DNA from: a virus
Taxonomy: Duplodnaviria; Heunggongvirae; Uroviricota; Caudoviricetes
DNA length: 64,000 bases
Virus record (IMG/VR): IMGVR_UViG_3300042870_001966
Direction: 5' to 3' (one strand)
Within the stretch, counting starts at the first letter, position 1; each line of letters begins with the position of its first letter. A program made the translations under genes and the position numbers. This document shows positions 15,717 to 50,743 of the stretch, in pieces. A model generated the notes under the pieces. That model was given only the letters and a program-made list of their open reading frames with translations. It did no database searches and was not told the origin of the DNA.

Positions 15717-16399
15717 TGGAAATTACATTTATAAGTGATACACATTGGATTGTATCTGATCCAGTTAATACAGAAGACCTAAATGATCTTCTGCCTGGAG
15801 GTCCTATCTTGGTCCACGCAGGTGATGTATCTGGGCGTGGAACTGAGCGTGAAATTAGAGTATTCCTTAAATGGTTTAGTTCACAACCCTATATGCATAA
15901 GATCCTAATTGCTGGAAACCACGACTTCTTTTTTGAGGTAGCAAAACCAGAGGAGGTTCAGGCTCTGCTTGCTGAGTATCCTGGAATTACCTACTTAAAT
16001 GATAGTGGCGTAACGATTGAGGGTATTAAATTCTGGGGAAGTCCAGTAACTCCATTCTTTCATAATTGGGCATTTAATCGATATGAAAATGAAATAGGTC
16101 CACATTGGGATCTTATTCCGGAAGGAATTGATGTTCTGATAACGCACGGGCCTCCTCATGGAATCTTGGATAAAACTATCAGAGAAGGTTGGAGCGTTGG
16201 TTGTAAAAGTCTAAAGGCTAAGGTTGATCAAATTAAACCCCAAGTTCATGTATTCGGCCACATACACGAAGAGATGGGCCAAGTAGAAATAGGCGGTACT
16301 ACATTTATTAATGCGTCAGTGGTCGATGAACGATATCGACTATGGCATAATCGCCCGCCAGTTATTAACGTTGAACCAAGATCAGAAAATTTAGTATAA
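15716..16399 (+). CDS. calcineurin-like metallophosphoesterase
   Basis: DTH...GDVSGRG...GNHD...HGPP...GHIHE motifs. Confidence 0.7.
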   Translation: MEITFISDTHWIVSDPVNTEDLNDLLPGGPILVHAGDVSGRGTEREIRVFLKWFSSQPYMHKILIAGNHDFFFEVAKPEEVQALLAEYPGITYLNDSGVTIEGIKFWGSPVTPFFHNWAFNRYENEIGPHWDLIPEGIDVLITHGPPHGILDKTIREGWSVGCKSLKAKVDQIKPQVHVFGHIHEEMGQVEIGGTTFINASVVDERYRLWHNRPPVINVEPRSENLV

Positions 16400-16403
16400 T
16401 AAC
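16393..16403 (+). promoter_or_regulatory. recurrent promoter-like motif AGTATAATAAC
   Basis: One of at least 9 copies of (A/G)GTATAATAAC, each 4-60 nt upstream of a start codon or tRNA. Confidence 0.45.
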
Positions 16404-16406
16404 TCT

Positions 16407-16625
16407 ATGGAAATAGAAACTAATAAACCACGAGTTGTTTGGAATCCTGGAATTTATTCAATCTTTGCACTGCTAACTGCGATGATCGGTTATCAGATTC
16501 ACAATAGCATTTTTTGGGCGATCATGGACTTCTTTTTCATGCCATTCGCTTGGATTAAATGGTTAATCATGCATGAAGTAAATATCACAATCATTAAGGA
16601 AACGTTTTCCTTTTTTCTAAAATAA
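16407..16625 (+). CDS. small membrane protein
   Basis: Two TM segments. Confidence 0.35.
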   Translation: MEIETNKPRVVWNPGIYSIFALLTAMIGYQIHNSIFWAIMDFFFMPFAWIKWLIMHEVNITIIKETFSFFLK

Positions 16626-16633
16626 AAATCAAT

Positions 16634-16897
16634 ATGAAAAAATTAGTAATTTTAACAGCGATCCTATTCTCATTCGCTTCATGTACTGAAAACTCGCGAG
16701 TTAAAAACTTCGGCGGTGAAGGCACTATCAATTTACCAAAGGGCAGAAAATTGGTAACTGTAACGTGGAAAGAGACTCAAATCTGGTATTTGACTCGGCC
16801 GATGGATTCAAGTGATGTTGCTCAAACCTATCAGTTCCATGAAGAATCGAGTTATGGCGTAATGGAAGGTACGTATAATATAATCGAGTCTAAGTAA
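16634..16897 (+). CDS. lipoprotein
   Basis: Signal peptide plus lipobox FASC. Confidence 0.45.
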   Translation: MKKLVILTAILFSFASCTENSRVKNFGGEGTINLPKGRKLVTVTWKETQIWYLTRPMDSSDVAQTYQFHEESSYGVMEGTYNIIESK

Positions 16898-16903
16898 CTC
16901 AAA

Positions 16904-16991
16904 GGAGGATTGGCAGAGTGGTCGATCGCGGCAGTCTTGAAAACTGTTGTACCGCAAGGTACCGTAGGTTCGAATCCTACATCCTCCGCCA
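16904..16991 (+). tRNA. tRNA-Ser(TGA), type II, CCA encoded
   Basis: Manual fold: acceptor GGAGGAT/ATCCTCC, anticodon loop CTTGAAA, long variable arm, T-loop TTCGAAT. Confidence 0.75.
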
Positions 16992-17007
16992 AAAAAATCA
17001 ATAAACA

Positions 17008-17196
17008 ATGGGACTATTCGGAGCAATCGCTAATATAGCAAGCGCAACAGTAAAAACAGCATTGTCACCAATCGCAGTCGTAAAGGATGCAGTTGACGTG
17101 GCAACCGGTGGCGAAGCTACCGCAACAAAGGATTTAATAAACTCGGTCGGCGAAGACTTATCTGACGCAGTCGATGAGGTAGTTGATCCTTATTAA
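17008..17196 (+). CDS. small hypothetical protein
   Basis: ORF after tRNA-Ser. Confidence 0.3.
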   Translation: MGLFGAIANIASATVKTALSPIAVVKDAVDVATGGEATATKDLINSVGEDLSDAVDEVVDPY

Positions 17197-17210
17197 AAAA
17201 ATAACAGTAT

Positions 17211-17909
17211 ATGTTAATTAAAAATCAAACGCCATACCTTGGCAAAATTCAGTTGAAGTTCGAGAGATTTCCTCACTACACTGGCAAAACTAAATTAAAT
17301 AAGATCCACTTGGATCTGGGATTTACTAAGTTAGTAAGCCGAATCCGACCTGAAAGAGATTTGGAAGGTTGGGCTGTAAATCCTGAATGTATTAAACAAA
17401 TTGAAGCAACTACTGGGCTAAAGGTAGGAGTTCATAAGTTCGGACCAGACGATGAGTACTCATTACCCAATTCATGCATGAATCCAGACGGAGTTTACGT
17501 TGGATCAATTGAAGAAGGTTGGTGGTACTACAACAATGGCCTCAGAGCAACAAAGGGATCTCATCCTCATACTGCATGGAGTAAGAAGGCAAAGCAGTGG
17601 ATTGGTTATTCTCACCGTGCTTCTTGTGCATTCGGAAAAGGCGATAAACTATTTGATGCTAAATGGAAACCTGCTGAACAAGACCTTCCTCAATACGAAA
17701 AGTTCTACGGCAAGCACCTGGACTCGTATTATAAAGAGTGCGAAGAATGGGCAAAGAGTACCTCTGACCATAAAGCGTCAGAAGAAGAAATGACCCTTGC
17801 TGGTTGGGCAGTAGATCATATTCCTTTTAGACTACGTGGTGCTAAGACAATTCATTCGTATGAAGATGCTTACAAGGCAGCAGTTAACTTTGCAAAATAC
17901 GTATCGTAA
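17211..17909 (+). CDS. hypothetical protein
   Basis: ORF only. Confidence 0.5.
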   Translation: MLIKNQTPYLGKIQLKFERFPHYTGKTKLNKIHLDLGFTKLVSRIRPERDLEGWAVNPECIKQIEATTGLKVGVHKFGPDDEYSLPNSCMNPDGVYVGSIEEGWWYYNNGLRATKGSHPHTAWSKKAKQWIGYSHRASCAFGKGDKLFDAKWKPAEQDLPQYEKFYGKHLDSYYKECEEWAKSTSDHKASEEEMTLAGWAVDHIPFRLRGAKTIHSYEDAYKAAVNFAKYVS

Positions 17910-18166
17910 TGGCAAAAGGCTCTATATTAAATGCACTAAAGAACGAGGCGGACATGAAACGTCTCGTTCTTGAGTTTACTGAGAAATTAGAACATGACCC
18001 GTACCAACCGGGGCTAGTTCATCCGGAAGTCTATCCGGACGATGTTCAGGAAGTACTTGAAGATCTACTGTGGATTAGGGGATTCGATGAAGCGACTATC
18101 AGAGTTAGAAAGAATCCAGATGGAGTATCTGTATCAGTAGAAGTTTTGGGCAGAACTAAGGGATAA
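17909..18166 (+). CDS. hypothetical protein
   Basis: ORF only. Confidence 0.45.
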   Translation: MAKGSILNALKNEADMKRLVLEFTEKLEHDPYQPGLVHPEVYPDDVQEVLEDLLWIRGFDEATIRVRKNPDGVSVSVEVLGRTKG

Positions 18167-18187
18167 ATAATAAAAATAAGATCCCTA

Positions 18188-19362: not shown

Positions 19363-19373
19363 GGTATAATAAC
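19363..19373 (+). promoter_or_regulatory. GGTATAATAAC motif upstream of leader and tRNA array
   Basis: Same motif. Confidence 0.45.
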
Positions 19374-19562
19374 TAGATAAATAACTAGACAAAAAAATTA
19401 AACTCGTGCAAATAACTACGAACATATCAAAAAATACTCAAAACTGGAATCAGTATCCGGCAGGCACAGTTAATGTGATTGCAATGGAGACGATTAAAGA
19501 TTTTGGGGTATTGCGAGGTTCTAGTGGTATAAGTTAAGAAATTACATAACTAACAACAACGA

Positions 19563-19602: not shown

Positions 19603-19678
19603 GGTGAGGTAGCTCAGATGGTAGAGCACAGGACTGAAAATCCTGGTGTCGGCGGTTCGATCCCGCCCCTCACCACCA
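19603..19678 (+). tRNA. tRNA-Phe(GAA)
   Basis: Cloverleaf fold; anticodon loop CTGAAAA; CCA encoded. Confidence 0.8.
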
Positions 19679-19756
19679 ACAAAAAAATGAATAAGAATAT
19701 GAAACGTAAACGCTAAAGGCCCAGTGACTCCCAGAGTTACAGGTCTAAATACACAG

Positions 19757-19830
19757 GTCTTCGTAGCTCAGTTGGTTAGAGCACCTCACTTTTAATGAGG
19801 GAGTCACAGGTTCGAGTCCTGTCGGGGACA
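19757..19830 (+). tRNA. tRNA-Lys(TTT)
   Basis: Anticodon loop CTTTTAA. Confidence 0.75.
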
Positions 19831-19836
19831 CTAAAC

Positions 19837-19913
19837 TGGAATATAGCTCAATTGGTTAGAGCATTCGCCTGATACGCGAAAGGTTATAGGTTCGATTCCT
19901 ATTATTCCAACCA
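19837..19913 (+). tRNA. tRNA-Ile(GAT)
   Basis: Anticodon loop CTGATAC; CCA encoded. Confidence 0.75.
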
Positions 19914-19918
19914 AACAT

Positions 19919-19996
19919 TGCGGGATGCGTAGAAAGCGGTTATCTCGTCAGTCTCATAAGCTGAAGTTCCCGGTTCGAGTCCGGGTCCCGCAACCA
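19919..19996 (+). tRNA. tRNA-Met or Ile2 (CAT), atypical D-arm
   Basis: Perfect acceptor TGCGGGA/TCCCGCA; anticodon loop CTCATAA; CCA encoded. Confidence 0.6.
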
Positions 19997-20005
19997 AAAG
20001 AATAC

Positions 20006-20076
20006 ACGGATGTGGTGCAATGGTAGCATGCGGGTCTCCAAAACCCTAGATGGGAGTTCGAATCTCTCCGACCGTG
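20006..20076 (+). tRNA. tRNA-Trp(CCA)
   Basis: Anticodon loop CTCCAAA. One acceptor mismatch. Confidence 0.6.
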
Positions 20077-20173
20077 CAAATCTTTCGAAAGAAAGTGACT
20101 AAATTAAACCTAATGTGGTATAGTAATCATATAAGTTTAACAAGAGTTCTTTGACTTATTGGAGATTGAAAAT

Positions 20174-22560: not shown

Positions 22561-22644
22561 CAAATTTTTTAGATTTTTTATCATCCGATTAAACCTAAAT
22601 CGATTTTTAATAGTATAGTAATAGTGTATCTTAATTTAAAACAA

Positions 22645-23034
22645 ATGACAAATACAAATTTAACTAACACAGTAGAACGATTAATGGAATTGCCTCAAGC
22701 AATCCAAGAATTGCAAATGGAAATTTTAGACCTAAACACTGAGTCTAACAAGAGTACCGAATTAATCTCCAATATCCAGTCAAAAATCAAGGTTGAAATT
22801 AACTCTGAAGTTGATGCAAACGGAAAGAAAACTTTCTCTAATGCAGAGGCAAGAGATGCTGAATTCATTGAGCGTACAAAGTTCAATTCTGAATTAGCAG
22901 GCCTTCGATCAGAGCATGACGCTTTACAGAGAGAAATTCAAGAGAAGAAAATTCAAGTTGAGTGCTTATCAAATGAGCAACGCAATAGCCGTTCAATCCT
23001 GAACTTTTTTGCAGGAGAAAACGAGACAGTTTAA
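22645..23034 (+). CDS. coiled-coil hypothetical protein
   Basis: ORF track 22624 starts at GTG. Internal ATG at 22645 is more plausible. Confidence 0.45.
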   Translation: MTNTNLTNTVERLMELPQAIQELQMEILDLNTESNKSTELISNIQSKIKVEINSEVDANGKKTFSNAEARDAEFIERTKFNSELAGLRSEHDALQREIQEKKIQVECLSNEQRNSRSILNFFAGENETV

Positions 23035-24454: not shown

Positions 24455-24483
24455 TTGTCTATTCATATTGGTATATTAATACC

Positions 24484-25150: not shown

Positions 25151-25567
25151 ATGAATAGAGTCTTAATTCTCCTACGTGGAGTTCCTGGTGCAGGTAAATC
25201 AACTGTTGCCAATTCAATATGGAATGAGTATGCCGTTTGCGAAGCTGACAAGTATTTTCACAACAAGGAAACTGGTGCATACGAATTTGATGTTACTAAA
25301 CTGAAGGATGCACATGAATGGTGTAGATCCCAGGTCGAGACCAGAATGAAAGACAGTCTGGTGAATCCACAATTTTACCCAGAGATTGTTGTCTCAAACA
25401 CATTCACCCAAGAGTGGGAGATGCAGGCATACTTCGATCTTGCAAAACAATACGATTACCGAGTAGTTTCTCTAATCGTTGAGAACCGTCATGGTGGAGA
25501 GAACGTGCATGGAGTACCAGCAGATAAGGTACAAGCAATGAGGGATCGTTTCCAAATTAAATTATGA
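25151..25567 (+). CDS. P-loop kinase, polynucleotide kinase (Pnk) kinase-domain-like
   Basis: Walker A LLRGVPGAGKST. VVSNTF resembles the T4 Pnk IISDTN motif. Confidence 0.5.
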   Translation: MNRVLILLRGVPGAGKSTVANSIWNEYAVCEADKYFHNKETGAYEFDVTKLKDAHEWCRSQVETRMKDSLVNPQFYPEIVVSNTFTQEWEMQAYFDLAKQYDYRVVSLIVENRHGGENVHGVPADKVQAMRDRFQIKL

Positions 25568-25795
25568 TAAAAACCGAGTCCTTTCTGGAGTATAGGATTA
25601 CTTACTCATGTCCGTTGACTGGCATGACTGGTGTGTGCTTCTGTAAGTGGTATGAGAAACTTAATGAGGTAATTAATATTTTTAAAATACCAAGTGAGTT
25701 TAAGCTGGAAGGATTTGACGGACTCAATTGGAAACTTATTAACAATAGCGTGCCAATTTTGGTATAATAATATAAACCTTAAACATATAAAAGTT

Positions 25796-26131
25796 ATGGA
25801 CAAAAAACAAGTAATGCAAACGATCCTAGATAAATTAGGAAAGTTGAGCAAAAAATTGGGCAACTTAATGATTTTAGCATTAGCTCTAGTTGCAGGCTTC
25901 TTTATTGGTTATTACTACTGGATGGTAACAAATAAAACCGCAAAAACTGAATGGGAAAATATTAAACCCCTATCAGAAACATCGGTTGCAATCAATGAGC
26001 GAAATGAATTGCTTGTAATCGACCGAAAATCTGGAATCTATTCAATTTATCAGGATTCAATCGGTATCGTTATTTTTAACCTGTATGCCAATCGCATCTA
26101 CAAACAAGTGGCACCAGCTGCTCAACAATAA
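25796..26131 (+). CDS. membrane protein (holin/spanin-like position)
   Basis: Internal ATG follows the GGTATAATAAT motif. One TM helix. Lies upstream of the transglycosylase. Confidence 0.4.
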   Translation: MDKKQVMQTILDKLGKLSKKLGNLMILALALVAGFFIGYYYWMVTNKTAKTEWENIKPLSETSVAINERNELLVIDRKSGIYSIYQDSIGIVIFNLYANRIYKQVAPAAQQ

Positions 26132-26928: not shown

Positions 26929-26962
26929 GTATCGGCGGACCGACGGCCTCCGATTGGAGGCC
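26929..26962 (+). terminator. rho-independent terminator
   Basis: GGCCTCCgattGGAGGCC followed by a T-run. Confidence 0.65.
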
Positions 26963-26977
26963 GTTTATTTTTTCGAT

Positions 26978-26988
26978 AGTATAATAAC
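26978..26988 (+). promoter_or_regulatory. AGTATAATAAC motif
   Basis: Same motif. Sits after a terminator and before the ORF at 27001. Confidence 0.45.
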
Positions 26989-27000: not shown

Positions 27001-27255
27001 ATGACTGAGTTAGAAAAATTTCAAATAGTAAATTCTTGCGAAACTCCTAAGGAGTTAGCTGATACGCTAATAAAATTAGCAGATCCTGAAACTGGCAGAA
27101 TCCAAGGCAGACTTAAAAGCTTTGATGCAAAGAGAATGTCTATATGCATCGGCCCAGTAATCTACGAAGGAGCTCCTGCTAATTTATTAACAAGAGAGTT
27201 TGGGATTCGACAACAAGCTCTCTATATTAGGTACTGTATACAAAACGGAATATAA
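27001..27255 (+). CDS. hypothetical protein
   Basis: ORF after promoter motif. Confidence 0.4.
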   Translation: MTELEKFQIVNSCETPKELADTLIKLADPETGRIQGRLKSFDAKRMSICIGPVIYEGAPANLLTREFGIRQQALYIRYCIQNGI

Positions 27256-30397: not shown

Positions 30398-30831
30398 TAC
30401 AGAATACACACAATAAAATCGGCGAGGGTAATCGACTCCTTGCGCAATTCATGGGAGGCACAATTGTCTCTAGTGAAACCTACGAAATGCCACACGGCTC
30501 AAACGGCAAAGGCGTCTTTGAAAAATGGGGTGGACTCTCTGGAATTCCCAGTCACGATCAGGAATTGGCTGCACTTGGAATATTTAGATATGAAACCTCA
30601 TGGAGCTGGATTTTTCCAGTAATCGAAAAGATCGAGAGTCTTGGTTTCTGCGTCAGCATTCACCGTAGAGGAATTCAAATTATTAAGTACGACAAGGATC
30701 GAAGATTTGAAGCGACTGACCTAATTATCGATGAAGACTTCTTAGATGATTATTCTGGAGATGTTAAGCGAATTGCTGCATGGGACTGTTGCGTTTCTTT
30801 TGTTGACTGGTACACAAAGAGGAGCCAATAA
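30394..30831 (+). CDS. hypothetical protein
   Basis: ORF only. Confidence 0.45.
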   Translation: MIQNTHNKIGEGNRLLAQFMGGTIVSSETYEMPHGSNGKGVFEKWGGLSGIPSHDQELAALGIFRYETSWSWIFPVIEKIESLGFCVSIHRRGIQIIKYDKDRRFEATDLIIDEDFLDDYSGDVKRIAAWDCCVSFVDWYTKRSQ

Positions 30832-31217
30832 TGGAATTAACGGGACCCTCTAAACTAGTAGTCGCATCCAGTCCAATACACGGACTTGGAGTATTCGCAA
30901 CGCAATCTATTAGCCCAGGCGAGATTATTGAAGAATGTCATTTCATAACATTCGATGCGACATCAGATGATCCTATTTTTAATGATTATCGATTCATAGT
31001 CGGCCGTTCTGAGAAATTAGGCTGCGTAGAGTATGGCGTTCTTCTTGGATTCGGAGGAATCTACAATCACAGTGAAACTCCAAATATAAATTGGAGACAT
31101 GATACTGAAAAGAATTGTTTTACGTTCTTTGCACTAGTCGATATTAATCCAGGAGACGAATTGTGCTCGTATTACGGAGGGCCTGAATATTGGAAATCAA
31201 TTGGTATGGAAATTTAG
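30831..31217 (+). CDS. SET-domain protein (putative lysine methyltransferase)
   Basis: GLGVFA..GE.I, NHSETPN, GDELCSYYG SET motifs. Confidence 0.6.
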   Translation: MELTGPSKLVVASSPIHGLGVFATQSISPGEIIEECHFITFDATSDDPIFNDYRFIVGRSEKLGCVEYGVLLGFGGIYNHSETPNINWRHDTEKNCFTFFALVDINPGDELCSYYGGPEYWKSIGMEI

Positions 31218-31226
31218 TATAATAAC
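31216..31226 (+). promoter_or_regulatory. AGTATAATAAC motif
   Basis: Upstream of the flotillin gene. Confidence 0.45.
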
Positions 31227-31291: not shown

Positions 31292-32725
31292 ATGACAGAA
31301 ATCATCACATCATCACTTATGTACGGACTACCGGCCTTAATAGGGGTAATCGTATTTTTTTATGCACTATCTCTACGTCGAATCGTGCCAACTAACGTAG
31401 TCCACATCGTTCAACGAGGAGACAAAACTGTTTCCTATGGCGTAGGTAAAGGCTCTAACGTTTATTATGAGTGGCCGAAGTGGTTACCTAAAATCGGAGT
31501 TATGGTCAGATCATTGCCAGTATCTAACTTTGATATTGACTTAGCTAAATATTCAGCGTATGATAAGGACCGTGTCCCTTTCGTAGTTGACGTTAAGGCA
31601 TTCTTCCACATTGCTGATACAAATAAAGCTGCCGAGAAAGTAGAATCATTTGACGAGTTGAAAAAGCAGCTGGAAAATGTAGTTCAAGGAGCAGTTCGTT
31701 CTATTTTAGCAAAGTCTAAATTGGAGGAAATTATGGAAGAACGATCTATCTTTGGCGAAAAATTTACTGAAAGTGTTAAAGTTGATTTATCTAATTGGGG
31801 AGTTGAGCCTATTAAAAATATCGAGTTAATGGATGTTAGAGATACTGACGGTTCGAGCGTTATTCACCAGATTATGGCTAAGCGAATGTCTGCGATTGAT
31901 ATGGAATCCAGAACTGAAGTTGCTAAAAACACTAAATTGGCAGAGCAGGCGGAACTAACTGCTCAACAAGAAATTGATGTAACTAAAGCAGAAACTCAGA
32001 AAATTGCAGGAGAGGCGCAAGCTCAATCAATACAGGCAATCGGTATTGCCAAAGCAGAGGCTACAAAAAAGGCAGGTATTGCAGAACAAGAGTCAATATC
32101 AGATATCGCTCAAGCTGAACGAGCTACTGCTGAACAGCAAATGGAGGTCGTTAAAGTTAATGAGATTAAGCAGGCTGAAATTGATAAGGAAAAGGCAATT
32201 ATTGCAGCTGAGCAACAAAAACGCAAAACTGAAATTGACGCAGAGGCTAATAAATTTAGAATTGAGACTGAGGCTTCTGCTACACTTGAAGCACAGATCA
32301 AAAATGCAGAAGGTGTTAAAACTCTGGGCCAAGCAGAAGCAGATATTATTAAAGCAAAGGGTATATCGCAGGCTGAATCCAAGAAAGCAATGGAGCTTGC
32401 TGGAGTAACTGCCCAAACAACCCTAGCAAAAGAGATTGGCGAAAACAAATCTTACCAAGAATACTTGATCAAAATTAGAGAAGTTGAAGTAACTCAAGTA
32501 GTCGGAGTTGCACAATACGAATCGATGGCAAAAGCAATGGCTGGAGCTGACTTGAAACTATTGGTAAATAGTGGAGACGTACACTCAGGAATTGGCAAGT
32601 TAAGCGACCTATTCACAGCTAAAGGAGGTTCACAGATTAACGGGCTTCTTGAATCATTGAAACAGACACCTGAAGGTAAAGGCTTACTGGCTATGCTTAA
32701 CAAGCTTACACCAGGCGCAGAATAA
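31292..32725 (+). CDS. SPFH/band-7 (flotillin-like) membrane protein with long coiled coil
   Basis: N-terminal TM helix, SPFH core, QAE/KAE-rich heptads. Confidence 0.65.
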   Translation: MTEIITSSLMYGLPALIGVIVFFYALSLRRIVPTNVVHIVQRGDKTVSYGVGKGSNVYYEWPKWLPKIGVMVRSLPVSNFDIDLAKYSAYDKDRVPFVVDVKAFFHIADTNKAAEKVESFDELKKQLENVVQGAVRSILAKSKLEEIMEERSIFGEKFTESVKVDLSNWGVEPIKNIELMDVRDTDGSSVIHQIMAKRMSAIDMESRTEVAKNTKLAEQAELTAQQEIDVTKAETQKIAGEAQAQSIQAIGIAKAEATKKAGIAEQESISDIAQAERATAEQQMEVVKVNEIKQAEIDKEKAIIAAEQQKRKTEIDAEANKFRIETEASATLEAQIKNAEGVKTLGQAEADIIKAKGISQAESKKAMELAGVTAQTTLAKEIGENKSYQEYLIKIREVEVTQVVGVAQYESMAKAMAGADLKLLVNSGDVHSGIGKLSDLFTAKGGSQINGLLESLKQTPEGKGLLAMLNKLTPGAE

Positions 32726-32741: not shown

Positions 32742-32778
32742 GACAAAAAGTCTCTAGATTTGTCTAGAGACTTTTTTA
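32742..32778 (+). terminator. rho-independent terminator
   Basis: GTCTCTAGAtttgTCTAGAGAC followed by TTTTTT. Confidence 0.65.
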
Positions 32779-32806
32779 TTTTGGTATAATAGTAAAAAGA
32801 AATAAC

Positions 32807-33544
32807 ATGACAGCACCATTTGAATTTTACGAAGTAGGCGGAAAGGTAAGAGACGAGATCTTGGGACTTCAGTCCAAAGACGTTGATTACGTAGCCGTGC
32901 CGAAAGCAACTCTGCTTGAGGAATTTCCTGAGGCGGCTGATATGTTTGACTTGCTAGTTGACTACTTAACTCGTGAAAAATTCCAGATATTCCTGATCAC
33001 CAAAGAATGTTACACAATCAGAGCAAAATTTCCAGACGGACATAAGTACCAAGGAGTTGCTGATTTTGTAATGTCTAGAAAAGAGACTGGATACGTGCCG
33101 TTTACCAGAACTCCGATCATTAAGCCTGGAACCCTATTCGACGATTTACAGAGAAGAGACTTTACTCTTAATGCCCTGGCAAGAGAAGCGGACGGCTCGA
33201 TCATTGACTACTTTGATGGGCTGACTCACTTGAAGCTTGGGCTATTAGTAACGCCATTACCTTGCGAGGAAACGTTTCACGATGATCCTTTGAGAATCTT
33301 GAGAGCTATTAGATTTTCAATCACTAAAGGATTTACTATCCCTGAGGAAATGTCTCAAGTAATAAAGCACTACGATTACGAAGTTAAGATGTGTGTAGTA
33401 TCAGCTGAGAGAATCAGGGAAGAGCTCTTTAAGTGTTTCAAACATGACACTCATGCAACGATACTTAAGTTATCAGAGTACCCTTTCCTTATGGAATACA
33501 TTTTTAGAACACAAATCTGGTTAAAACCAACAATGGAAGAATAA
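32807..33544 (+). CDS. cca: CCA-adding tRNA nucleotidyltransferase (head/neck domains)
   Basis: GGKVRDEILG, DVDY, RRDFTLNA motifs. Confidence 0.75.
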   Translation: MTAPFEFYEVGGKVRDEILGLQSKDVDYVAVPKATLLEEFPEAADMFDLLVDYLTREKFQIFLITKECYTIRAKFPDGHKYQGVADFVMSRKETGYVPFTRTPIIKPGTLFDDLQRRDFTLNALAREADGSIIDYFDGLTHLKLGLLVTPLPCEETFHDDPLRILRAIRFSITKGFTIPEEMSQVIKHYDYEVKMCVVSAERIREELFKCFKHDTHATILKLSEYPFLMEYIFRTQIWLKPTMEE

Positions 33545-34098
33545 TGGAAGCAACAATAAATGGAAGAATAATGGAAGCAAAAATAAACTGGGTTCTAGAC
33601 CAACATAGAGACACGAATCACATGTACGATAAGTACTTGCCTTATGAATTTCATTTACGTATGGTCGTTGAAGTTGCAAAGAAATTTCAATCTTTAATTA
33701 CGTATGAGAAAGATTTTGAGCATGTACTACTTGGAGCATGGGGCCATGATCTTATTGAAGACACCAGAGTTTCATACAATGATGTTAAGCAGGCGCTTGG
33801 AGAAATGGCAGCAGATATTGTCTATGCGTGCTCAAACGAGAAAGGCAAGAGTCGTAATGATCGGGCTAACTACCGATACTACGATGGAATCAGAACAACG
33901 CCGTATGCGATATTCGTTAAGTTATGCGACCGAATTGCAAACGTGCAGTACTCAAAAATGTCTGGCAGCAGAATGTTCGAGATGTACAGAAAAGAAAATC
34001 CCGAATTCATGCAGCAATTAGGCTGGACGGCTGAAGAAAAATATCTTCATGAGTATGCCAATATGTTTGTATACTTAAGTAAATTATTCGAAGACTGA
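33544..34098 (+). CDS. HD-domain phosphohydrolase (stand-alone)
   Basis: H..GHDLIEDT...D motifs. Adjacent to the CCA enzyme, as in bacterial fused CCA enzymes. Confidence 0.65.
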   Translation: MEATINGRIMEAKINWVLDQHRDTNHMYDKYLPYEFHLRMVVEVAKKFQSLITYEKDFEHVLLGAWGHDLIEDTRVSYNDVKQALGEMAADIVYACSNEKGKSRNDRANYRYYDGIRTTPYAIFVKLCDRIANVQYSKMSGSRMFEMYRKENPEFMQQLGWTAEEKYLHEYANMFVYLSKLFED

Positions 34099-34117
34099 AA
34101 ATAAAAAAATTAATATA

Positions 34118-35320
34118 ATGGAAAATCAAAACAGCGTATGTTACATTGGAAAAGTAACAGAAATCAAGGCAATCGAAGGAGCTGACAATATTGAGTTAGC
34201 GATCATCGGTGGATGGAATTGTATTACTAAAAAAGGACTACACAAGGCGGACGAATTTGTTATCATTGCAACAACTGATGCAGTTATTCCGGAAGAGTTA
34301 TCCGAAAAATTGGGAGTAACCGGTTACCTGCGTAAGGGCAATCGAGTTAGAACAGTTAAGTTGAGAGGAGTTTACAGTGAGTGTCTAATCATTCCGCTTA
34401 ATGTGCTTGAAGGTTCAGAAGAAATGAAGATCGGAGTTAGTAAACAGCCTTGGGGCGATCAATTACAGTTGGGCCCTTATGACGATGCACTCGTTATTGA
34501 AGAAGGAGTTGACGTTAGTGAGATGCTTGGAATTTTCAAGTACGAACCGCCAGTTAGACAGGTCCAACTTGCTTCAGGTAAAAAGGTTCGTTATCAAGAC
34601 AATCCAAACTTTCATGTCTACTACAAGTTTCCTAACTTGAAAAATGTTAGTGGAATGTTTACTGAAGAGGATATTGTGCAAATCACGCGTAAGATCCACG
34701 GTACGAATGCACGATACGGTATAGTTAAGAAGAATCGCTTGTCCTTCATGGATAGGATTAAAAAATTCTTTGGATTCGCCGGAGAGCTCTTTGAGTACGA
34801 GTACGTTTATGGATCTCATAATGTCGAGAAGGGTTCTGATTCTCAAGGGTTCTATTCAACTGATGTCTGGAGAACAATTGCCGAGAAGTACGATATCAAG
34901 AACAGGTTGCTTACCTTAGCAAAAACTAAAAATAGGATTGGTGAACTTGGAGCTGGTATTGTAATTTACGGAGAAATTTACGGTGCAGGTATTCAAAAGA
35001 ATTACGAGTACGGTCTGACTGATATTGAATTCGTTGGATTCGATGCCACAGTAAACGGCAAATACGAGTCCACTATTTACACTGAATTCCTTTTCAAAGA
35101 AGCGCTAGAGTTACCTCACGTTGGAGTCCTATACACAGGACCGTGGTCACAAGAGACACAAGACCAGTTCGTCTTTGGTAATATGATCAAAGGAACTAAG
35201 GTGCCGCATGAAGGCATTGTTATTAAGCACATAAGCGGTGAGCGTAATCGAGTAGCAAAGGTAATTAATCCAGACTATTTGATTTACGGAGAAAAGCACG
35301 ATATTGGAGACTCACATTAA
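34118..35320 (+). CDS. ATP-dependent RNA ligase (Rnl2-like motifs) fused to N-terminal tRNA-binding OB (Myf/Trbp111-like) domain
   Basis: N-terminal GKV.EI..IEGADNIELA..GG tRNA_bind pattern. Ligase motifs KIHGTN (I), EGIVIK (IV), AKVIN (V). Confidence 0.65.
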   Translation: MENQNSVCYIGKVTEIKAIEGADNIELAIIGGWNCITKKGLHKADEFVIIATTDAVIPEELSEKLGVTGYLRKGNRVRTVKLRGVYSECLIIPLNVLEGSEEMKIGVSKQPWGDQLQLGPYDDALVIEEGVDVSEMLGIFKYEPPVRQVQLASGKKVRYQDNPNFHVYYKFPNLKNVSGMFTEEDIVQITRKIHGTNARYGIVKKNRLSFMDRIKKFFGFAGELFEYEYVYGSHNVEKGSDSQGFYSTDVWRTIAEKYDIKNRLLTLAKTKNRIGELGAGIVIYGEIYGAGIQKNYEYGLTDIEFVGFDATVNGKYESTIYTEFLFKEALELPHVGVLYTGPWSQETQDQFVFGNMIKGTKVPHEGIVIKHISGERNRVAKVINPDYLIYGEKHDIGDSH

Positions 35321-36424: not shown

Positions 36425-36435
36425 GGTATAATAAC
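36425..36435 (+). promoter_or_regulatory. GGTATAATAAC motif upstream of tRNA-Leu
   Basis: Same motif. Confidence 0.45.
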
Positions 36436-36464: not shown

Positions 36465-36545
36465 GCCCTCTTGGCGGAATTGGTAGACGCGCTAGACTTA
36501 GGATCTAGTCTTAGGGTGAGAGTTCGAGTCTCTCAGAGGGTACCA
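36465..36545 (+). tRNA. tRNA-Leu(TAG)
   Basis: Class-II D-arm TGGCGGAATTGGTAGACGC. Loop CTTAGGA. Short (9 nt) variable region. CCA encoded. Confidence 0.6.
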
Positions 36546-36697
36546 AACACATATCACAAATAAAAATGTGAGTTACTTTGAAATAGCCAATTATAAGCCA
36601 ACATAAAGCCGTTGGGTACAGAAGGAGTAATTAACCGGAGTATAGGCAACAATTGTGACACTGTAACAAATACCCATTTGAGTGGTATGTTTTAAAT

Positions 36698-36818
36698 AGT
36701 CAGGTGGCGGAATTGGTAGACGCTATGTGGTGCGGAACTCGCTTCGTTCACCACTCCCTTAGCGGGGAAAACAAAGGTAAGAGATGTGACCATGCAGGTT
36801 CGAATCCTGTCCTGACTA
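36698..36818 (+). ncRNA. 121-nt tRNA-like RNA (Leu-like acceptor/D/T arms with about 45-nt extra internal sequence)
   Basis: Acceptor AGTCAGG/CCTGACT. D-arm identical to the tRNA-Leu at 36465. T-arm GCAGG-TTCGAAT-CCTGT. Internal hairpins GTGGT..ACCAC and GAAC-TCGCTTC-GTTC. Confidence 0.4.
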
Positions 36819-36984
36819 CGATTGTTAACACGCTTGCTTCGTGTTGAAATTGTCAGATAACGTGCAACGATAGTTTAAAGACTGTAGAAAAAGAAACACT
36901 GACTGGAAGGATTCTTATGGACGCATAAGAAGTAAAAGTCCACAACTAAACCTACTTACAATTGGCAAGGTAAATTGAATTAAG

Positions 36985-37012
36985 GCGATCGATCTAACGG
37001 TCGCCTTTTTTA
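36985..37012 (+). terminator. rho-independent terminator
   Basis: GGCGAtcgatctaacggTCGCC followed by TTTTTT. Confidence 0.55.
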
Positions 37013-37025
37013 GTATATTAGACTT

Positions 37026-40926: not shown

Positions 40927-42257
40927 TGAGACTTAAACGATTTACACAATTCGTTAATGAAAATACTGATGATGCTGAAGAATTAGCAGCATTAGGTTTT
41001 AATTCAAAGATTGACACGGATGAAATTCAAGGATTAATGGCCGAATACAACCCAGAGGAGAAGACCGACACGACATTAGGTTTCGATTTGGGATTTGATA
41101 TGACAGCTGATGATTTAGGACTTGATCCAGAAAGAGCAGAGGCTGCTGAATTAGATAGCGTGTTCCTTGTTCAGTACTATGTTGATTTCGACTTTGAGAC
41201 AATGAAATCTAAAGTACAAGTGGCAGTCTTAAATTCTGGGATTGATTTTGACGGTGCAGGTAATGCGTATGAAGTTGATTTTAAACTGGATTCAGAAAAT
41301 CACGATTCTCAAGGAATCGCTGATGAGTTAACTCAGATTTTGCAGCGAATTGAATACGAAGGCATGTTTGTAGACATGGCAGTCGATATAGTAAATGACA
41401 TAATCGATAGACGTCTTGGAGAAGTATCAGAAAAGAAGAAACTTAAATGGCATGATTCTGATGAGCCTAACACAAAAGGAAAATTCATAATTGAGAACTT
41501 ATCTGATGAAGAAGCTGCAGAACTAAGAGCAATGGGTTTTGGTGGAGTTGACACTGATGCAATCGCAGAACTAGTCAATGGAGCAACTGCAGAAGATCAA
41601 ATCGTTATTGTTTCAGGCCAGTTCAATCAATCTATAGATGATTACGGAATAGATTCATCCGAATATCCGGATATAGAAAGAGACGTATGGACTGATTTTG
41701 AAGTCAGAATAAACTTTATCGATGAAACTGTTAAGTCGTCAGTTAGTGTCGCACAAAAAGATATCGGACTTTACGAAGATGCTGAACTTGAAGACTATGA
41801 ATGGTCTGACCTATTCCAAAATGGAGATCCAGTTTCAATGAAGTCTAATGAGATAGCTGAAGATATTGAACTCTTTATGAGTGCCGTAACTGGTTTCGAA
41901 GACTCGCTTGGAATGTACGACAAAATTCAAGATCTTTTAAATAAGGCAATTGAGGAACAGTATCACAGATGGGATGACGAAGAAGATGATGAAGCTGATG
42001 AAGATGAAATTTCAGAAAAGAAAAAACTTAAATGGCACGATTCTGATGCACCTGATGCAAATGGAAAATTCAGAGACCTTGGAGTTAATAAATTAGCGGA
42101 TTGGTTAATCAGAACAAGAGGTGGTAACATGCAAAAGATTACTGGATCGCTAAATCAACAAATTAATTTTAACAAGCGAAAAAATCCAAGTTATGCCAAG
42201 AAAATGGAGTCGACTCGGGAAGCAGTTAAAAGAAAATTAGCAAAAAGAAAAGAATAA
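40926..42257 (+). CDS. acidic protein with CTS-like N-terminus (MRLKRFTQFVNE) and internal duplication
   Basis: EKKKLKWHDSD(E/A)P..GKF occurs twice. Confidence 0.55.
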   Translation: MRLKRFTQFVNENTDDAEELAALGFNSKIDTDEIQGLMAEYNPEEKTDTTLGFDLGFDMTADDLGLDPERAEAAELDSVFLVQYYVDFDFETMKSKVQVAVLNSGIDFDGAGNAYEVDFKLDSENHDSQGIADELTQILQRIEYEGMFVDMAVDIVNDIIDRRLGEVSEKKKLKWHDSDEPNTKGKFIIENLSDEEAAELRAMGFGGVDTDAIAELVNGATAEDQIVIVSGQFNQSIDDYGIDSSEYPDIERDVWTDFEVRINFIDETVKSSVSVAQKDIGLYEDAELEDYEWSDLFQNGDPVSMKSNEIAEDIELFMSAVTGFEDSLGMYDKIQDLLNKAIEEQYHRWDDEEDDEADEDEISEKKKLKWHDSDAPDANGKFRDLGVNKLADWLIRTRGGNMQKITGSLNQQINFNKRKNPSYAKKMESTREAVKRKLAKRKE

Positions 42258-42393
42258 ATAAAACCAATTAGAAATATTGTAGTATATTATTAACATGAAA
42301 ACATTATCCTTACATTCACTTTGTTTACGTTCGTTGAGATTAAGTCTCGATGTGTCTAGGCCGTGATGTAAGATAAGAAAACTTCTACTGAAA

Positions 42394-42427
42394 AGGCTTA
42401 GACTAACGTTTAAGCCTTTTTTGTTTT
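42394..42427 (+). terminator. rho-independent terminator preceding tRNA cluster
   Basis: GGCTTAgactaacgttTAAGCC followed by a T-run. Confidence 0.6.
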
Positions 42428-42428
42428 T

Positions 42429-42506: not shown

Positions 42507-42590
42507 GGAAGAGTAATTCAGCTGGCGCTGGACCTAGTCTTGAAAACTAGTGGTACCTTCGGGTATGGGGATCGATACCTCACTCTTCCG
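42507..42590 (+). tRNA. tRNA-Ser(TGA)-like, type II, non-canonical T-loop ATCGATA
   Basis: 8-bp acceptor. Anticodon arm CTAGT-CTTGAAA-ACTAG. Variable-arm hairpin with TTCG loop. Confidence 0.5.
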
Positions 42591-46254: not shown

Positions 46255-46300
46255 TTTTTTTTTTTTGAAGTCTCACTTTTGTGGGACTTTTTTTGTTTTT
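46255..46300 (+). terminator. rho-independent terminator
   Basis: T-run, GTCTCAC..GTGGGAC hairpin, T-run. Confidence 0.5.
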
Positions 46301-46337
46301 ATTAGTATATTATAAGTAATAAACAAAAAATATACTT

Positions 46338-46610
46338 ATGGCAACATTCGAAGTAGACGTAGACGTTTCTGATATCTTATCGGAATTATCATCTCGTGAA
46401 AAGCGAGAAATGTACGAAGATTTAAAAGAAGAACTTGAAGAGGACGATGTTTCAAAAAATCCTGAGGATCTATTTAACAGCGGCACCTCCTACATGGAAC
46501 AGGAAATTGGAAAGGCTTTGGCTTGGATGTGGGAATACCGCAATATGCTGACGACCTCTCAAAGAAACCGAATCCTAGCAATCACAAAAGAAAACTTCGT
46601 TGAGCAATGA
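46338..46610 (+). CDS. hypothetical protein
   Basis: ORF only. Confidence 0.4.
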   Translation: MATFEVDVDVSDILSELSSREKREMYEDLKEELEEDDVSKNPEDLFNSGTSYMEQEIGKALAWMWEYRNMLTTSQRNRILAITKENFVEQ

Positions 46611-48183: not shown

Positions 48184-48755
48184 TGAAGGTAATTTTTTTA
48201 GACCATGATGGAGTTATTTGCCTAGCTACTGAATGGGGAAGTCGATTTAAGAAGACTAAAAGGTCTAAGACTGCGATGCAAATTAATACTAAAGACAATC
48301 CAGTTGAGTTTAGATTTGACAACTTTAATCAGAAAGCAGTTTCAATACTTAACGATATTATAAAGCAGACTGATGCTGAAATTGTAGTAAGTTCAGATTG
48401 GACACGTTGGGCGACCGTTGAAGAAATGGGCGAGTATTATGAATCAAAGGGCATCTGTAAAAAGCCGATCGCATTTACCCCAGACCTAAAGGACTGTACT
48501 GTGCATGGAAGTATTTTTATCTGGTCACCGGATTGGGATCTTGAACAAGTAAGATCTATTGAAATTAAGCAGTACTTACACGATCATCCTGAAATAACTC
48601 ATTGGGTTGCAATTGACGACTTAAACATGGGTAAAAGCGGCGAGAGTTGGAAAGATGTGTGGGCCTTAGATAATTTCGTACTTACACCAAAGCGAATGGA
48701 AGGCATTAAGCAGTCTGGAATAAAGGATAAAATCTTAAAATTTTTAAAGGATTAA
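48183..48755 (+). CDS. HAD-family phosphatase, Pnk 3'-phosphatase-domain-like
   Basis: VIFLDHDGVI (DxDG nucleophile motif) and WVAIDD motif resemble T4 Pnk VIFDVDGTL / LAIDD. Confidence 0.5.
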   Translation: MKVIFLDHDGVICLATEWGSRFKKTKRSKTAMQINTKDNPVEFRFDNFNQKAVSILNDIIKQTDAEIVVSSDWTRWATVEEMGEYYESKGICKKPIAFTPDLKDCTVHGSIFIWSPDWDLEQVRSIEIKQYLHDHPEITHWVAIDDLNMGKSGESWKDVWALDNFVLTPKRMEGIKQSGIKDKILKFLKD

Positions 48756-48780
48756 GAGTACAATATAAAAAACAAATACT

Positions 48781-49029
48781 ATGTCAGAAAACACAAATGC
48801 CGAACTTGGATTAATCCAAACAATAGCTAGAACTGGTGCAATCGAAACAGTTCAAGCCCTAGCACTTGCTCAACAAATGGGAATGGTCAATTCACAAGAA
48901 GAATTAACTGAATTAATTGCAGCAGGAATGGAGACGATCCTTGAAGAATACGTTCAACAAATAGAAAACCAATCTAAAATTATCCTAAATGAAGCTGGAA
49001 GTATTCGAGAAGGTAATAAACCAAATTAA
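48781..49029 (+). CDS. hypothetical protein
   Basis: ORF only. Confidence 0.3.
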   Translation: MSENTNAELGLIQTIARTGAIETVQALALAQQMGMVNSQEELTELIAAGMETILEEYVQQIENQSKIILNEAGSIREGNKPN

Positions 49030-49372
49030 AGAACAAGACGAAAAAATCAGTGCCCTGTACAAAATGGGAGTTGATTTAATCGAGTTTAGCGATTCATATT
49101 CGTCATTACGGTCTCTACTGCTTAGAGCCTATTATGGAGAAGAAGGCGAAGACTGGATTTCGTGGTTTCTTTATGAAAGAGACAGTTCAGTAGGAGCCGA
49201 TCCTAATCAAGCATGGGACAAAGATGGAACACCTATTTGTTACGATATTCCAAGTTTATGGAAATGTGTTGAGGAGAGTCGATGTTCAACTGATTTTGTT
49301 GAATATGAGCTTCCTAAATCAAGAGCGACCGCTGATGATTTGTTAAATCATATAGTAAACGGACTAGGTTAA
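48989..49372 (+). CDS. hypothetical protein
   Basis: ORF only. Confidence 0.4.
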   Translation: MKLEVFEKVINQIKEQDEKISALYKMGVDLIEFSDSYSSLRSLLLRAYYGEEGEDWISWFLYERDSSVGADPNQAWDKDGTPICYDIPSLWKCVEESRCSTDFVEYELPKSRATADDLLNHIVNGLG

Positions 49373-49395
49373 TAAATTAGTAGTATAATAATCTT

Positions 49396-49839
49396 ATGAA
49401 AACACACAATTCAGATAGAGTCGGTGCTATTAAACATAGAGCTAAGCGCATTTTTCAAAGAGTCGGTATTAAAATGACCCGATTATTTAATCCACTTGAT
49501 GTAATAAGAGCTGAAGAAAATTCATCGGATCGAGATGCCTCAATTCTTTTTAGAAAGATGATTTTACAAAAGGACAGCGAATTACTAATAAGTCCAATTA
49601 GCAACCGATACTTTGTAAAAAATGATGCAAATAACATCCTATTAATCTTAGAAGAATACGAATTAGTTATTATTAATCATGTATTTGGATACAACATTAA
49701 ACTTTCACAAAAGGCTTACCGTCAATTATACACAGCTTTCGTAAATGAAGTGGAGGACCGTAGAAAGCAGATGGAAAGAACTTTTAGTAAAAATGTAAAG
49801 CACTCATTACAAACGTTAATTCAAAGATTAGATGACTAA
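49396..49839 (+). CDS. hypothetical protein
   Basis: Promoter motif upstream. Confidence 0.4.
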   Translation: MKTHNSDRVGAIKHRAKRIFQRVGIKMTRLFNPLDVIRAEENSSDRDASILFRKMILQKDSELLISPISNRYFVKNDANNILLILEEYELVIINHVFGYNIKLSQKAYRQLYTAFVNEVEDRRKQMERTFSKNVKHSLQTLIQRLDD

Positions 49840-50098
49840 ATACACAAAACTATCACTACTTGGACTATCTCCAGTTATTACGATCATACTAATGGTTGCT
49901 ATTGGAACTGTATTAGCTAGATCAAGAAACTCTAAAGAAGTTCCATTCGCGAGCTCTTCTAAAATTGACACAGTTTACGTTGAAAAGCGAGTTGAGGTTG
50001 AAGTAAAGCCTGACACCGTATATTTTATTAAACCTTGTAAAAAATCACATTGCGATACAGAATCAGTTAAACCCCCAAAAATAGACTCAATACAATAA
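49832..50098 (+). CDS. membrane protein
   Basis: N-terminal TM helix. Confidence 0.35.
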   Translation: MTKYTKLSLLGLSPVITIILMVAIGTVLARSRNSKEVPFASSSKIDTVYVEKRVEVEVKPDTVYFIKPCKKSHCDTESVKPPKIDSIQ

Positions 50099-50721
50099 TG
50101 GAAGTAAAATTCGCAGATACATTCGGAGATAGCTTAAAGCGTCTCAGGTGGCATGAAAGTAAAATTTATAAATTCTACTCGTTTTTTCGGTACGATATCG
50201 GGCGTTTCGTTAAAAACGTTTGGCGTTTTAAAAAGGCACTAAACGGTCATTACTGGTGGGACCATCATGGCTCTCTACAGTTCATGGAGATTGCGTTAAC
50301 TCACATAGCTGACAATCTTGAGAAGCGAGGTCTTGAAGTAGACGGGCCTAGGCTAAAGAAGGTTGCTAAGATGCGTAGAGCAGTTGAACTTATTAAGAAT
50401 TACAATCAAGATAATTATATTGAAATGGCTGAGGCTGAACTGGGCGAAATTATTCATCATGAATGGGAGTTCGAAGCGGTTCCAGACAAACCTGGATATT
50501 CTCAATTAGTCGACAACGATACTCCAGAGGAAAAAGAGCACAATCGTAAAGTTTTCAATAGAGCACGTGAAATCGAAGATACTGAATGGTCTGAACTATG
50601 GGCCATCTTACAAGGGCAAAACCGAACTCAATTTACCATGTTTGCAGACAAGTCAACTGACAAAGATTCAGCTTGGGACAATTGGTTTGATGGATCAGGT
50701 ATGAAAGGTTGGTGGGATTAA
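50098..50721 (+). CDS. hypothetical protein
   Basis: ORF only. Confidence 0.45.
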   Translation: MEVKFADTFGDSLKRLRWHESKIYKFYSFFRYDIGRFVKNVWRFKKALNGHYWWDHHGSLQFMEIALTHIADNLEKRGLEVDGPRLKKVAKMRRAVELIKNYNQDNYIEMAEAELGEIIHHEWEFEAVPDKPGYSQLVDNDTPEEKEHNRKVFNRAREIEDTEWSELWAILQGQNRTQFTMFADKSTDKDSAWDNWFDGSGMKGWWD

Positions 50722-50732
50722 CACTTAAAAAG

Positions 50733-50743
50733 AGTATAATAAC
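50733..50743 (+). promoter_or_regulatory. AGTATAATAAC motif upstream of Clp ATPase
   Basis: Same motif. Confidence 0.45.

Follow-up and report, generated by a model that had tools for sequence, protein, structure and literature searches.

Here we describe a short recurrent DNA element in a stretch of 64,000 nucleotides (nt; hereafter the window, numbered from its first letter) of the IMG/VR record IMGVR_UViG_3300042870_001966, a 64 kb part of a large T4-like phage. The signal, TTRGTATAATAAY, is 12 bases long and is found 16 times before genes and tRNA clusters; its copies would serve as promoters for the prereplicative (early/middle) genes of this T4-like Bacteroidota phage, a reading to which we give a probability of about 0.8. 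It stands out in resembling a TATAAT box of Escherichia coli type, unlike the promoters of the host phylum, and in a predicted start that often coincides with the ATG. We take the motif to be a real, conserved promoter class and a known kind of element, not a new kind. An original prediction, made from the letters of the window, had proposed an early or middle promoter, and this proposal finds support in the position and strand of the sites, the neighboring terminators, the tRNA context, the conserved A/T at the predicted start and the preservation of the motif in relatives.

The core GTATAnTA has 24 matches in the window, 22 of them on the plus strand. Sixteen are intergenic, lie on the plus strand co-oriented with the genes, and are confined to the region between 14.8 and 50.8 kb, at about one per 2.3 kb. 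The longer form RGTATAATAAC occurs exactly seven times, always on the plus strand (6895, 16393, 19363, 26978, 31216, 36425 and 50733), against an expectation of 0.10 from shuffled sequences, and none of 100 shuffles reached seven. Copies with one mismatch stand at 14870, 25761 and 49382 (GTATAATAAT); the site at 32783 reads GGTATAATAGT. The claim that all copies are on the plus strand holds for the seven exact copies and for the 16 intergenic sites. Eight of the nine near-identical coordinates first proposed are right, and the ninth, 25771, marks the last base of the site beginning at 25761; among the degenerate copies (the others near 22612, 42281 and 46304), the one placed at 20126 was off by 9 nt and starts at 20117. 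Three intergenic sites (14870, 24470 and 37012) and the exact copy at 6895 had been omitted from that list. The matrix scan that had been suggested as a check was run on the window with a matrix built from the 16 sites; it gave 19 matches of at least 11 bits against 4.0 (maximum 9) in 40 Markov-2 simulations, an enrichment that is partly circular because the matrix derives from the same sites. All 16 intergenic plus-strand matches lie between 14.8 and 50.8 kb, and the scan of the window found nothing convincing before minus-strand genes. The sole minus-strand match, TTGGGATAATAAC at 58916-58928 (13.1 bits), could be a weak variant site; the gene that it precedes, at a distance of 47 nt, is the one before the portal gene.

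Alignment of the 16 sites on their invariant G, taken as position 0, gives T T R G TATAAT A A Y as the consensus. Position -2 is T in 14 of 16 sites and position -1 is a purine in all of them; the G, the TATA at +1 to +4 and the TA at +6 and +7 are without exception. Position +5 is A in ten sites, T in four and G in two, so that TATAAT is found in 10/16 and TATAnT in 16/16; A follows at +8 in 12/16 and a pyrimidine at +9 in 14/16. If TATAAT is placed at -12 to -7, the predicted start of transcription falls at position +13 after the G. This base is A in 13 of the 16 sites (p ~9e-5), and the next one is T in 12 (p ~2e-4). Furthermore, an ATG stands exactly at +13 in five sites (16407, 24484, 37026, 42295 and 49396), four of which open reading frames of 72-247 codons. 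With a window-wide ATG frequency of 0.0175, the probability of at least five in 16 at a fixed offset is ~6e-6. The ATG of the ClpB-like gene (50749) is at +15, which brings the share to 6/16 when this 2-nt leader is included. The earlier remark that some transcripts would be nearly leaderless was hence an understatement, given that the ATG coincides with the predicted +1 in 5/16 sites. As for the -35 region, said to be devoid of any element, neither TTGACA nor TTTG was found upstream of the 16 sites; nonetheless, GG[AG] occurs 20-26 nt upstream of the invariant G in 8/16 sites against a background of 12% (p ~3e-4), a weak and post-hoc observation on 16 sites. A scan for the -35/-10 consensus of Escherichia coli type gave 43 and 48 matches where 48.7 and 52.2 were expected, i.e., no enrichment.

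The 16 sites, all on the plus strand, are the following:

14870..14880 (+): AGTATAATAAT, 18.4 bits, overlapping the TAG stop of gene 14470-14871; next ATG at 14913, 31 nt downstream.
16393..16403 (+): AGTATAATAAC, overlapping the TAA stop of the phosphoesterase gene 15716-16399; ATG 16407 at the predicted +1, leaderless, of a 72-amino-acid membrane protein.
19363..19373 (+): GGTATAATAAC, 230 nt upstream of the tRNA cluster 19603-20077; a late-type ATAAATAAC lies 3 nt downstream at 19377, making tandem promoters.
20117..20127 (+): GGTATAGTAAT, 15.7 bits, between tRNA-Trp and tRNA-Gln, 46 nt upstream of the latter (20174).
22612..22622 (+): AGTATAGTAAT, situated past the final tRNA of its cluster and ahead of gene 22645-23034.
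24470..24480 (+): GGTATATTAAT, with the ATG of a ClpP-like protease (24484) at the predicted +1.
25761..25771 (+): GGTATAATAAT, overlapping the TAA stop of gene 25564-25767; next ATG at 25796.
26978..26988 (+): AGTATAATAAC, 13 nt after the terminator 26942-26965; ATG at 27001.
31216..31226 (+): AGTATAATAAC, overlapping the TAG stop of gene 30831-31217, 65 nt upstream of the SPFH/Band-7 gene 31292-32725.
32783..32793 (+): GGTATAATAGT, 7 nt after the terminator 32745-32776, at the head of operon 32807-35320 (tRNA nucleotidyltransferase, HD hydrolase, RNA ligase).
36425..36435 (+): GGTATAATAAC, 29 nt upstream of tRNA-Leu 36465-36545.
37012..37022 (+): AGTATATTAGA, 5 nt after the terminator 36982-37007; ATG 37026 at the predicted +1.
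42281..42291 (+): AGTATATTATT, with a late-type ATAAATAA upstream at 42254 and a tRNA cluster downstream.
46304..46314 (+): AGTATATTATA, 14 nt after the terminator 46267-46290; ATG at 46338.
49382..49392 (+): AGTATAATAAT, with ATG 49396 of a 147-amino-acid protein at the predicted +1.
50733..50743 (+): AGTATAATAAC, following the stop of gene 50098-50721 and preceding the ClpB-like gene, whose ATG (50749) is at the predicted +3, leaving a 2-nt leader.

The distance to the next feature, previously given as 4-60 nt, is 3-65 nt at most sites, and reaches 230 nt at 19363 (tRNA-Phe) and ~139 nt at 42281 (tRNA-Cys), where a reading frame of 23 codons and a terminator intervene. The association with terminators, described as frequent, is restricted to the four sites preceded directly by a strong intrinsic terminator (26978, 32783, 37012 and 46304). 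Five of the 16 sites lie within or beside tRNA clusters; for three of them (19363, 20117 and 36425) a tRNA is the next feature, 29-230 nt away, and the site at 22612 is downstream of the final tRNA of its cluster. These tRNA-adjacent sites rule out a purely translational signal, and the four sites placed after strong terminators, together with those before tRNA genes, likewise imply that the motif is not a translation signal.

Relatives of the phage are numerous in IMG/VR, with contigs of up to 294 kb (related loci are labeled L and a number below). In those with 65-95% protein identity, motif and spacing are kept at orthologous sites, whereas the flanking non-coding DNA has diverged. Among 13 close relatives, the region upstream of the ClpB-like gene carries GTATAAT in 11 (as GTATAATA) and GTATATTA in one, at the same distance from the ATG, and has lost the motif in one (L001). 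Ahead of the ClpP-like gene, the arrangement GGTATATTAATACC-ATG is kept, and the 24470 site is identical in motif and spacing in L048, L103 and L105. In L103, L104 and L106 the motif is retained at the counterpart of the 16393 site, where the leader measures 3 nt; in L048, GGTATAATATA precedes the homologue of gene 37026 with the same leaderless spacing, a tRNA taking the place of the upstream terminator; and the equivalents of the 22612 site, before homologues of gene 22645, read GGTATAATAAC/A within flanks that cannot be aligned. Outside the window, more copies are present in the same genome: one stands 14 nt ahead of the start of a gene (L107, 3262), another precedes a GyrB-like topoisomerase subunit (L107, 6313), and one past the right end is kept in relatives that are 70-95% identical. 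Moreover, of the 102 occurrences of [AG]GTATAATAA in 1.9 Mb of related loci, 74 are intergenic and co-oriented, and permuted 8-mers of equal composition display no comparable concentration in co-oriented intergenic DNA.

More distant relatives, whose RNA ligase is 62-71% identical, carry TTTGG-N19-(c)GTATATTT(G/A) at equivalent or orthologous sites, and GTATATTT(G/A) stands in place of the 32783 motif before the orthologous tRNA nucleotidyltransferase operon. This arrangement is the canonical Bacteroidota sigmaA promoter (-33 TTTG, -7 TAnnTTTG) with TTCG added just upstream. The first ATG downstream of the box shows a sharp peak at offset 13 in these distant relatives, in 28 of 357 GTATATT[AT] sites against 4-6 at neighboring offsets. 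In the mapped promoters of Flavobacterium the box lies at -12 to -5, so that offset 13 corresponds to +1 (PMC9723704). This shared geometry would make the window motif equivalent, in position and in function, to bona fide promoters of host type. Other boxes occur in further branches of the family, such as ATATATA followed by 4 nt and ATG in L140, L199 and L202. In addition, some related phages harbor many near-identical promoter cassettes of ~40 nt per 20 kb, each clade having its own version: TTAGGAAAT-N-CTTATCTTTAaGTATA in L051 (e.g., 948, 2453, 7955 and 11703) and GGTTATATTTACTTATAACTTAAAAAC in L205 (e.g., 16402, 16789 and 17465).

The assignment to the prereplicative class draws on a second motif, nATAAATAA, which lacks the RG prefix, is found on both strands and precedes start codons by 5-22 nt. 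In close relatives it is the most enriched upstream word, present in 110 upstream regions where 4 are expected. Its positions in the window are:

plus strand, late-type nATAAATAA: 18163, 18739, 19377, 23556, 40330, 42254, 43593, 45507, 52742, 53805, 54068 and 62193.
minus strand, late-type nATAAATAA: 6602, 13744 and 59403.

It precedes the endolysin gene on the minus strand (12901-13725), a gp4-like head-closure gene on the same strand (58891-59397) and a cluster containing a gp13-like neck gene, with leaderless spacing at some sites (40330 and 59403). The late promoter of T4 is TATAAATA, a single element devoid of a -35 box; T4-like cyanophages have a relaxed form of it, which nATAAATAA matches. 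In turn, RGTATAAT sites precede tRNAs, tRNA-repair genes, the ClpP-like and ClpB-like genes and small genes, and none of the structural genes identified in the window is preceded by one. The two motifs also occur in tandem, at 19363/19377 and 42254/42281. RGTATAAT would thus be of the early/middle class, because a distinct motif marks the late genes, because RGTATAAT itself marks non-structural ones and because the two stand in tandem.

This same evidence bears on the possibility that RGTATAAT is itself a T4-type late promoter, a variant of TATAAATA read by a gp55-like minimal sigma factor with gp33 and the sliding clamp. The single-element architecture without a -35 box is indeed that of T4 late promoters; TATAATAA differs from TATAAATA by one base; site 40329 reads AGTATAAATAACTCTATG where 16393 has AGTATAATAACTCTATG; and all T4-like jumbo phages have been reported to encode minimal sigma factors (PMC7824862). 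We consider it improbable nonetheless, since the separate and more abundant nATAAATAA, on both strands and lacking the RG prefix, already occupies the positions before endolysin, head-closure and neck genes, whereas RGTATAAT introduces tRNA, tRNA-repair and chaperone genes and no identified structural gene, and since the tandem pairs are sensible only if the two classes differ.

A second alternative would make the motif the operator of a phage regulator, or a recombination cassette, with a likeness to promoters arising by chance. High information over ~12 bp is typical of regulator sites, and composites of terminator and promoter (PeSLs) mediate gene shuffling in T4-like phages (PMC2839356, PMC4122927), four of the window sites being such composites. 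Still, the motif is non-palindromic and keeps a fixed orientation and a fixed distance to the conserved A/T, often to the ATG, and a PeSL role would add to a promoter function instead of replacing it; we regard this explanation as having little chance of being correct.

Smaller still is the probability we would grant to an RNA-level signal, i.e., a processing site or a translation or re-initiation signal. It is true that the motif frequently shares bases with the upstream stop codon and stands 3-5 nt ahead of the following ATG, and Bacteroidota are described as using A-rich upstream sequence instead of Shine-Dalgarno pairing (PMC6847099). However, sites are found 29-230 nt before tRNA genes with no reading frame in between, the spacing to the ATG ranges between 3 and 65 nt, several sites come just after strong intrinsic terminators, beyond the reach of upstream transcripts, and complete -33/-7 DNA promoters occupy these places in more distant relatives. 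Finally, that the motif is a compositional or chance feature of intergenic DNA which is AT-rich and rich in stop codons (TAATAA provides stops in two frames) is refuted by the seven exact 11-mers against 0.10 expected, by the lack of a comparable concentration of permuted 8-mers, by the presence of 22 of 24 core matches on one strand and by an invariant G that is rare in this context and conserved in relatives.

Several observations weigh against the promoter reading and should be considered together. It is a reading of DNA sequence only. One of the exact copies, at 6895, is intragenic and antisense to gene 6605-7783 (minus strand), hence not upstream of any gene. The motif, with neither TGn nor a -35 hexamer, fits no characterized holoenzyme exactly, and the weak upstream GGA box is a post-hoc finding. 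TTTG is present in the box at 0/16 sites, and the substituted bases are themselves conserved. The PHROGs annotation of the window includes no sigma, gp55, gp33, MotA or AsiA gene, and ~88 kb of sequence from this clade yielded no homologue of sigma-70 or gp55. In addition, the host is assigned at the coarse rank of phylum.

Several converging lines point to a host within the Bacteroidota. We infer this phylum because of a type IX secretion domain, the genes lacking Shine-Dalgarno sequences, the relatives of the portal protein, and the canonical Bacteroidota promoters and sigmaA-like genes of related phages. The domain belongs to the protein encoded at 10960-12882 (minus strand), which combines a cohesin-like domain with a type IX secretion C-terminal sorting domain and so suggests export through the type IX secretion system of the host. 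A Shine-Dalgarno sequence is absent from 85 of 91 window genes. The T4-type portal gene (56525-58207, minus strand) encodes a protein whose closest public relatives are those of uncultured megaphages, Prevotella Lak phages and the Tenacibaculum phage PTm1, and the identical protein is recorded in 77 blocks of the assembly collection, with contigs of 0.2-1 Mb among its carriers. A comparison of the epimerase gene with species genomes gave identities of at most 45% in mixed phyla, and no clue to the host.

Which sigma factor would read the motif is a separate question, and the odds between the host sigmaA and a phage-encoded or phage-remodeled factor are about even. Against an unmodified host sigmaA, the downstream half of the box is A-T-A-A where the consensus of the phylum has T-T-T-G; the initial emphasis on a perfect TATAAT, correct as far as the hexamer goes, had missed that it departs from the TAnnTTTG of the presumed host phylum. 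Besides, gene-proximal TAnnTTTG of host type is absent from the window as well as from L107 and L264, and ~78 kb of this genome showed no host-type promoter. For the host sigmaA, the class would be ancestrally host-type judging by the relatives, both versions share a TTnG extension, GGA could be a remnant of the -33 box, and the host itself might differ in specificity. Eight sigmaA-like proteins of phages, along with E. coli RpoD and T4 gp55, gave no match as tblastn queries in the window and the loci of close relatives, and in pattern scans of IMG/VR for sigma factors many relatives appeared, contigs of this clade being absent among the matches listed.

Many relatives do encode full-length sigma-70-family proteins (sigma-70 superfamily in NCBIfam) that resemble Bacteroidota sigmaA. 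Presumably, they share with the latter the N-terminus MRQLKI... and the motif FKFISYAVWWIR. Genes of this family were located as follows:

L110, 8020-8898: sigma-70-family gene.
L111, 10001-10903: sigma-70-family gene.
L140, 10001-10879: sigma-70-family gene.
L201/L222 and L204/L214: sigma-70-family genes.

On two related contigs the gene is present in two copies, and in L140-type relatives it has a conserved neighborhood, adjoining a homologue of window gene 50098-50721. A subfamily with the signature WYIRKDM (L111, L119-L121) co-occurs with GTATAAT sites, leaderless ones included; across ~100 loci bearing sigma genes, the link between subfamily and motif type is only suggestive. It has also been reported that T4-like jumbo phages always encode (minimal) sigma factors (PMC7824862). 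Taken together with the boxes of the relatives, this allows a tentative proposal, to which we give somewhat less than even odds: the clade may have switched its prereplicative box from the host-type TAnnTTTG to TATAATAAY, read by a phage-encoded or phage-remodeled sigma factor. This factor could be a diverged copy of the sigmaA-like genes of the relatives or a second, gp55-like one. Were this true, the switched box would make the phage transcription program orthogonal to that of the host and would directly yield leaderless mRNAs in a phylum where they are rare.

Under the promoter reading, the element would act as a single extended -10-type unit, T(-15) R(-14) G(-13) TATAAT(-12 to -7) A A Y(-4), with at most a degenerate GGA near -35. 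The host core RNA polymerase with a factor of the sigma-70 family would melt TATAAT, and transcription probably starts at the conserved A seven bases 3′ of the final T of the hexamer. Such promoters would restart transcription after terminators and drive tRNA clusters, tRNA-repair, chaperone/protease and many small genes. At about a third of the sites the message would begin at the AUG or at most 2 nt from it, giving a leaderless mRNA, which fits a host phylum that does without Shine-Dalgarno pairing.

The surrounding gene content is that of a large T4-like phage: the window holds 26 tRNA genes and encodes a fragment of a family B DNA polymerase, a primase, a topoisomerase II, the ClpB-like ATPase, an RNA ligase, a tRNA nucleotidyltransferase and the ClpP-like protease. 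Its DNA has no similarity to known phages apart from one tRNA, and a scan of the window with Rfam returned only tRNAs. Some features deserve mention on their own. From the GTATATTA site at 42281, a predicted transcript (42295-42428, plus strand) runs to the terminator 42390-42421; it contains only the reading frame of 23 codons, folds with -41.8 kcal/mol (z = -6.2) and could represent a small RNA encoded immediately before the tRNA cluster. Within that cluster, a tRNA-like gene not called by ARAGORN (42507-42589, plus strand) scores 47.9 bits with the Rfam tRNA-Sec model, whose threshold is 47; it has the anticodon loop CUUGAAA, the anticodon UGA (serine codon UCA) and a long acceptor stem, and may be a Sec-shaped gene akin to the “allo-tRNAs”. 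Between tRNA-Leu and a strong terminator, ~465 nt (36546-37010) are free of open reading frames and have no Rfam match, and a sequence resembling a tRNA T-arm, GGATTCGAACC, is found on the minus strand near 36772-36820. Around the antisense copy mentioned above, two GTATAATA copies (6864-6905, plus strand) stand 32 nt apart, one of them being the exact 11-mer at 6895, and could be an antisense promoter or chance. For the discovery of motifs, a ranking of k-mers under a maximal-order Markov model was uninformative, and the contrast of upstream with coding sequence worked. Our search of the literature found no paper on this motif or on the promoters of these phages.

Provided that these are real promoters, the sites offer a map of transcription units for a widespread, uncultured group of phages of 200-300 kb, in which two motifs separate prereplicative from late genes. 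The occurrence of TATAATAAY and TAnnTTTG at equivalent sites, along with the sigmaA-like genes of the relatives, would constitute a natural experiment in the co-evolution of promoters and sigma factors, and might supply orthogonal promoter/sigma pairs for Bacteroidota, a phylum with limited genetic tools. Furthermore, the high share of predicted starts at AUG makes leaderless translation testable in a phylum without Shine-Dalgarno pairing.

How does this element compare with known systems? In Bacteroidota, sigmaA recognizes a -7 box, TAnnTTTG, at -12 to -5, with the start 5 nt after the box (PMC9723704). A -33 box, TTTG, precedes the -7 box by about 19-20 bp. The window motif has the same geometry, keeping TA at -12/-11 and T at -7; the perfect versions of the relatives share the TTnG extension just upstream of TA, and the degenerate GGA(A) seen post hoc upstream of half of the window sites may correspond to the -33 box. 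It departs from sigmaA promoters in having A, A and A at -8, -6 and -5 where the sigmaA box has T, T and G, and in its upstream box, which is weak and ~2 bp further off, whereas the relatives show a clear TTTGG.

With the early and middle promoters of T4 the motif shares a T4-like phage, prereplicative genes and tRNAs, and a near-perfect TATAAT; the -35 hexamer is dispensable in T4 middle promoters (PMC2988021). T4 early promoters, however, combine UP, -35 and TGn elements with a -10, and the conserved G of the motif is at -13, not at -14. In those of the middle class, TGCTT, the MotA box, stands upstream of the -10 at a distance of 12 bp; no MotA box, (a/t)(a/t)(a/t)TGCTTtA centered at -30, is visible in the logo of the 16 sites. 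As in extended -10 (TGn) promoters, a strong -10 and the adjoining upstream bases would make up for the absent -35 (PMC2988021), with the difference that T(-15) R(-14) G(-13) abuts TATAAT, where TGn promoters read T-G-n-TATAAT, and that A A Y is additionally conserved at -6 to -4. T4 late promoters (TATAAATA; gp55/gp33/gp45) are similarly single-element, AT-rich and -10-like, but the window has a separate nATAAATAA before its late genes.

The PeSL cassettes of T4-like phages, made of a stem-loop terminator and a conserved early promoter, flank small variable genes (PMC2839356, PMC4122927). The terminator-promoter composites at 26942-26988, 32745-32793, 36982-37022 and 46267-46314 resemble them, although a stem-loop is present at only 4/16 window sites. 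Lastly, in leaderless promoters (lambda cI; Deinococcus, Actinobacteria) the -10 box is positioned such that the message begins with the A of the AUG (PMC4007540), and the placement of the box at the motif sites likewise makes the predicted +1 the A of the AUG. This would be the case at five of the 16 sites, whereas leaderless mRNAs are ~5.5% of the total in Flavobacterium (PMC9723704).

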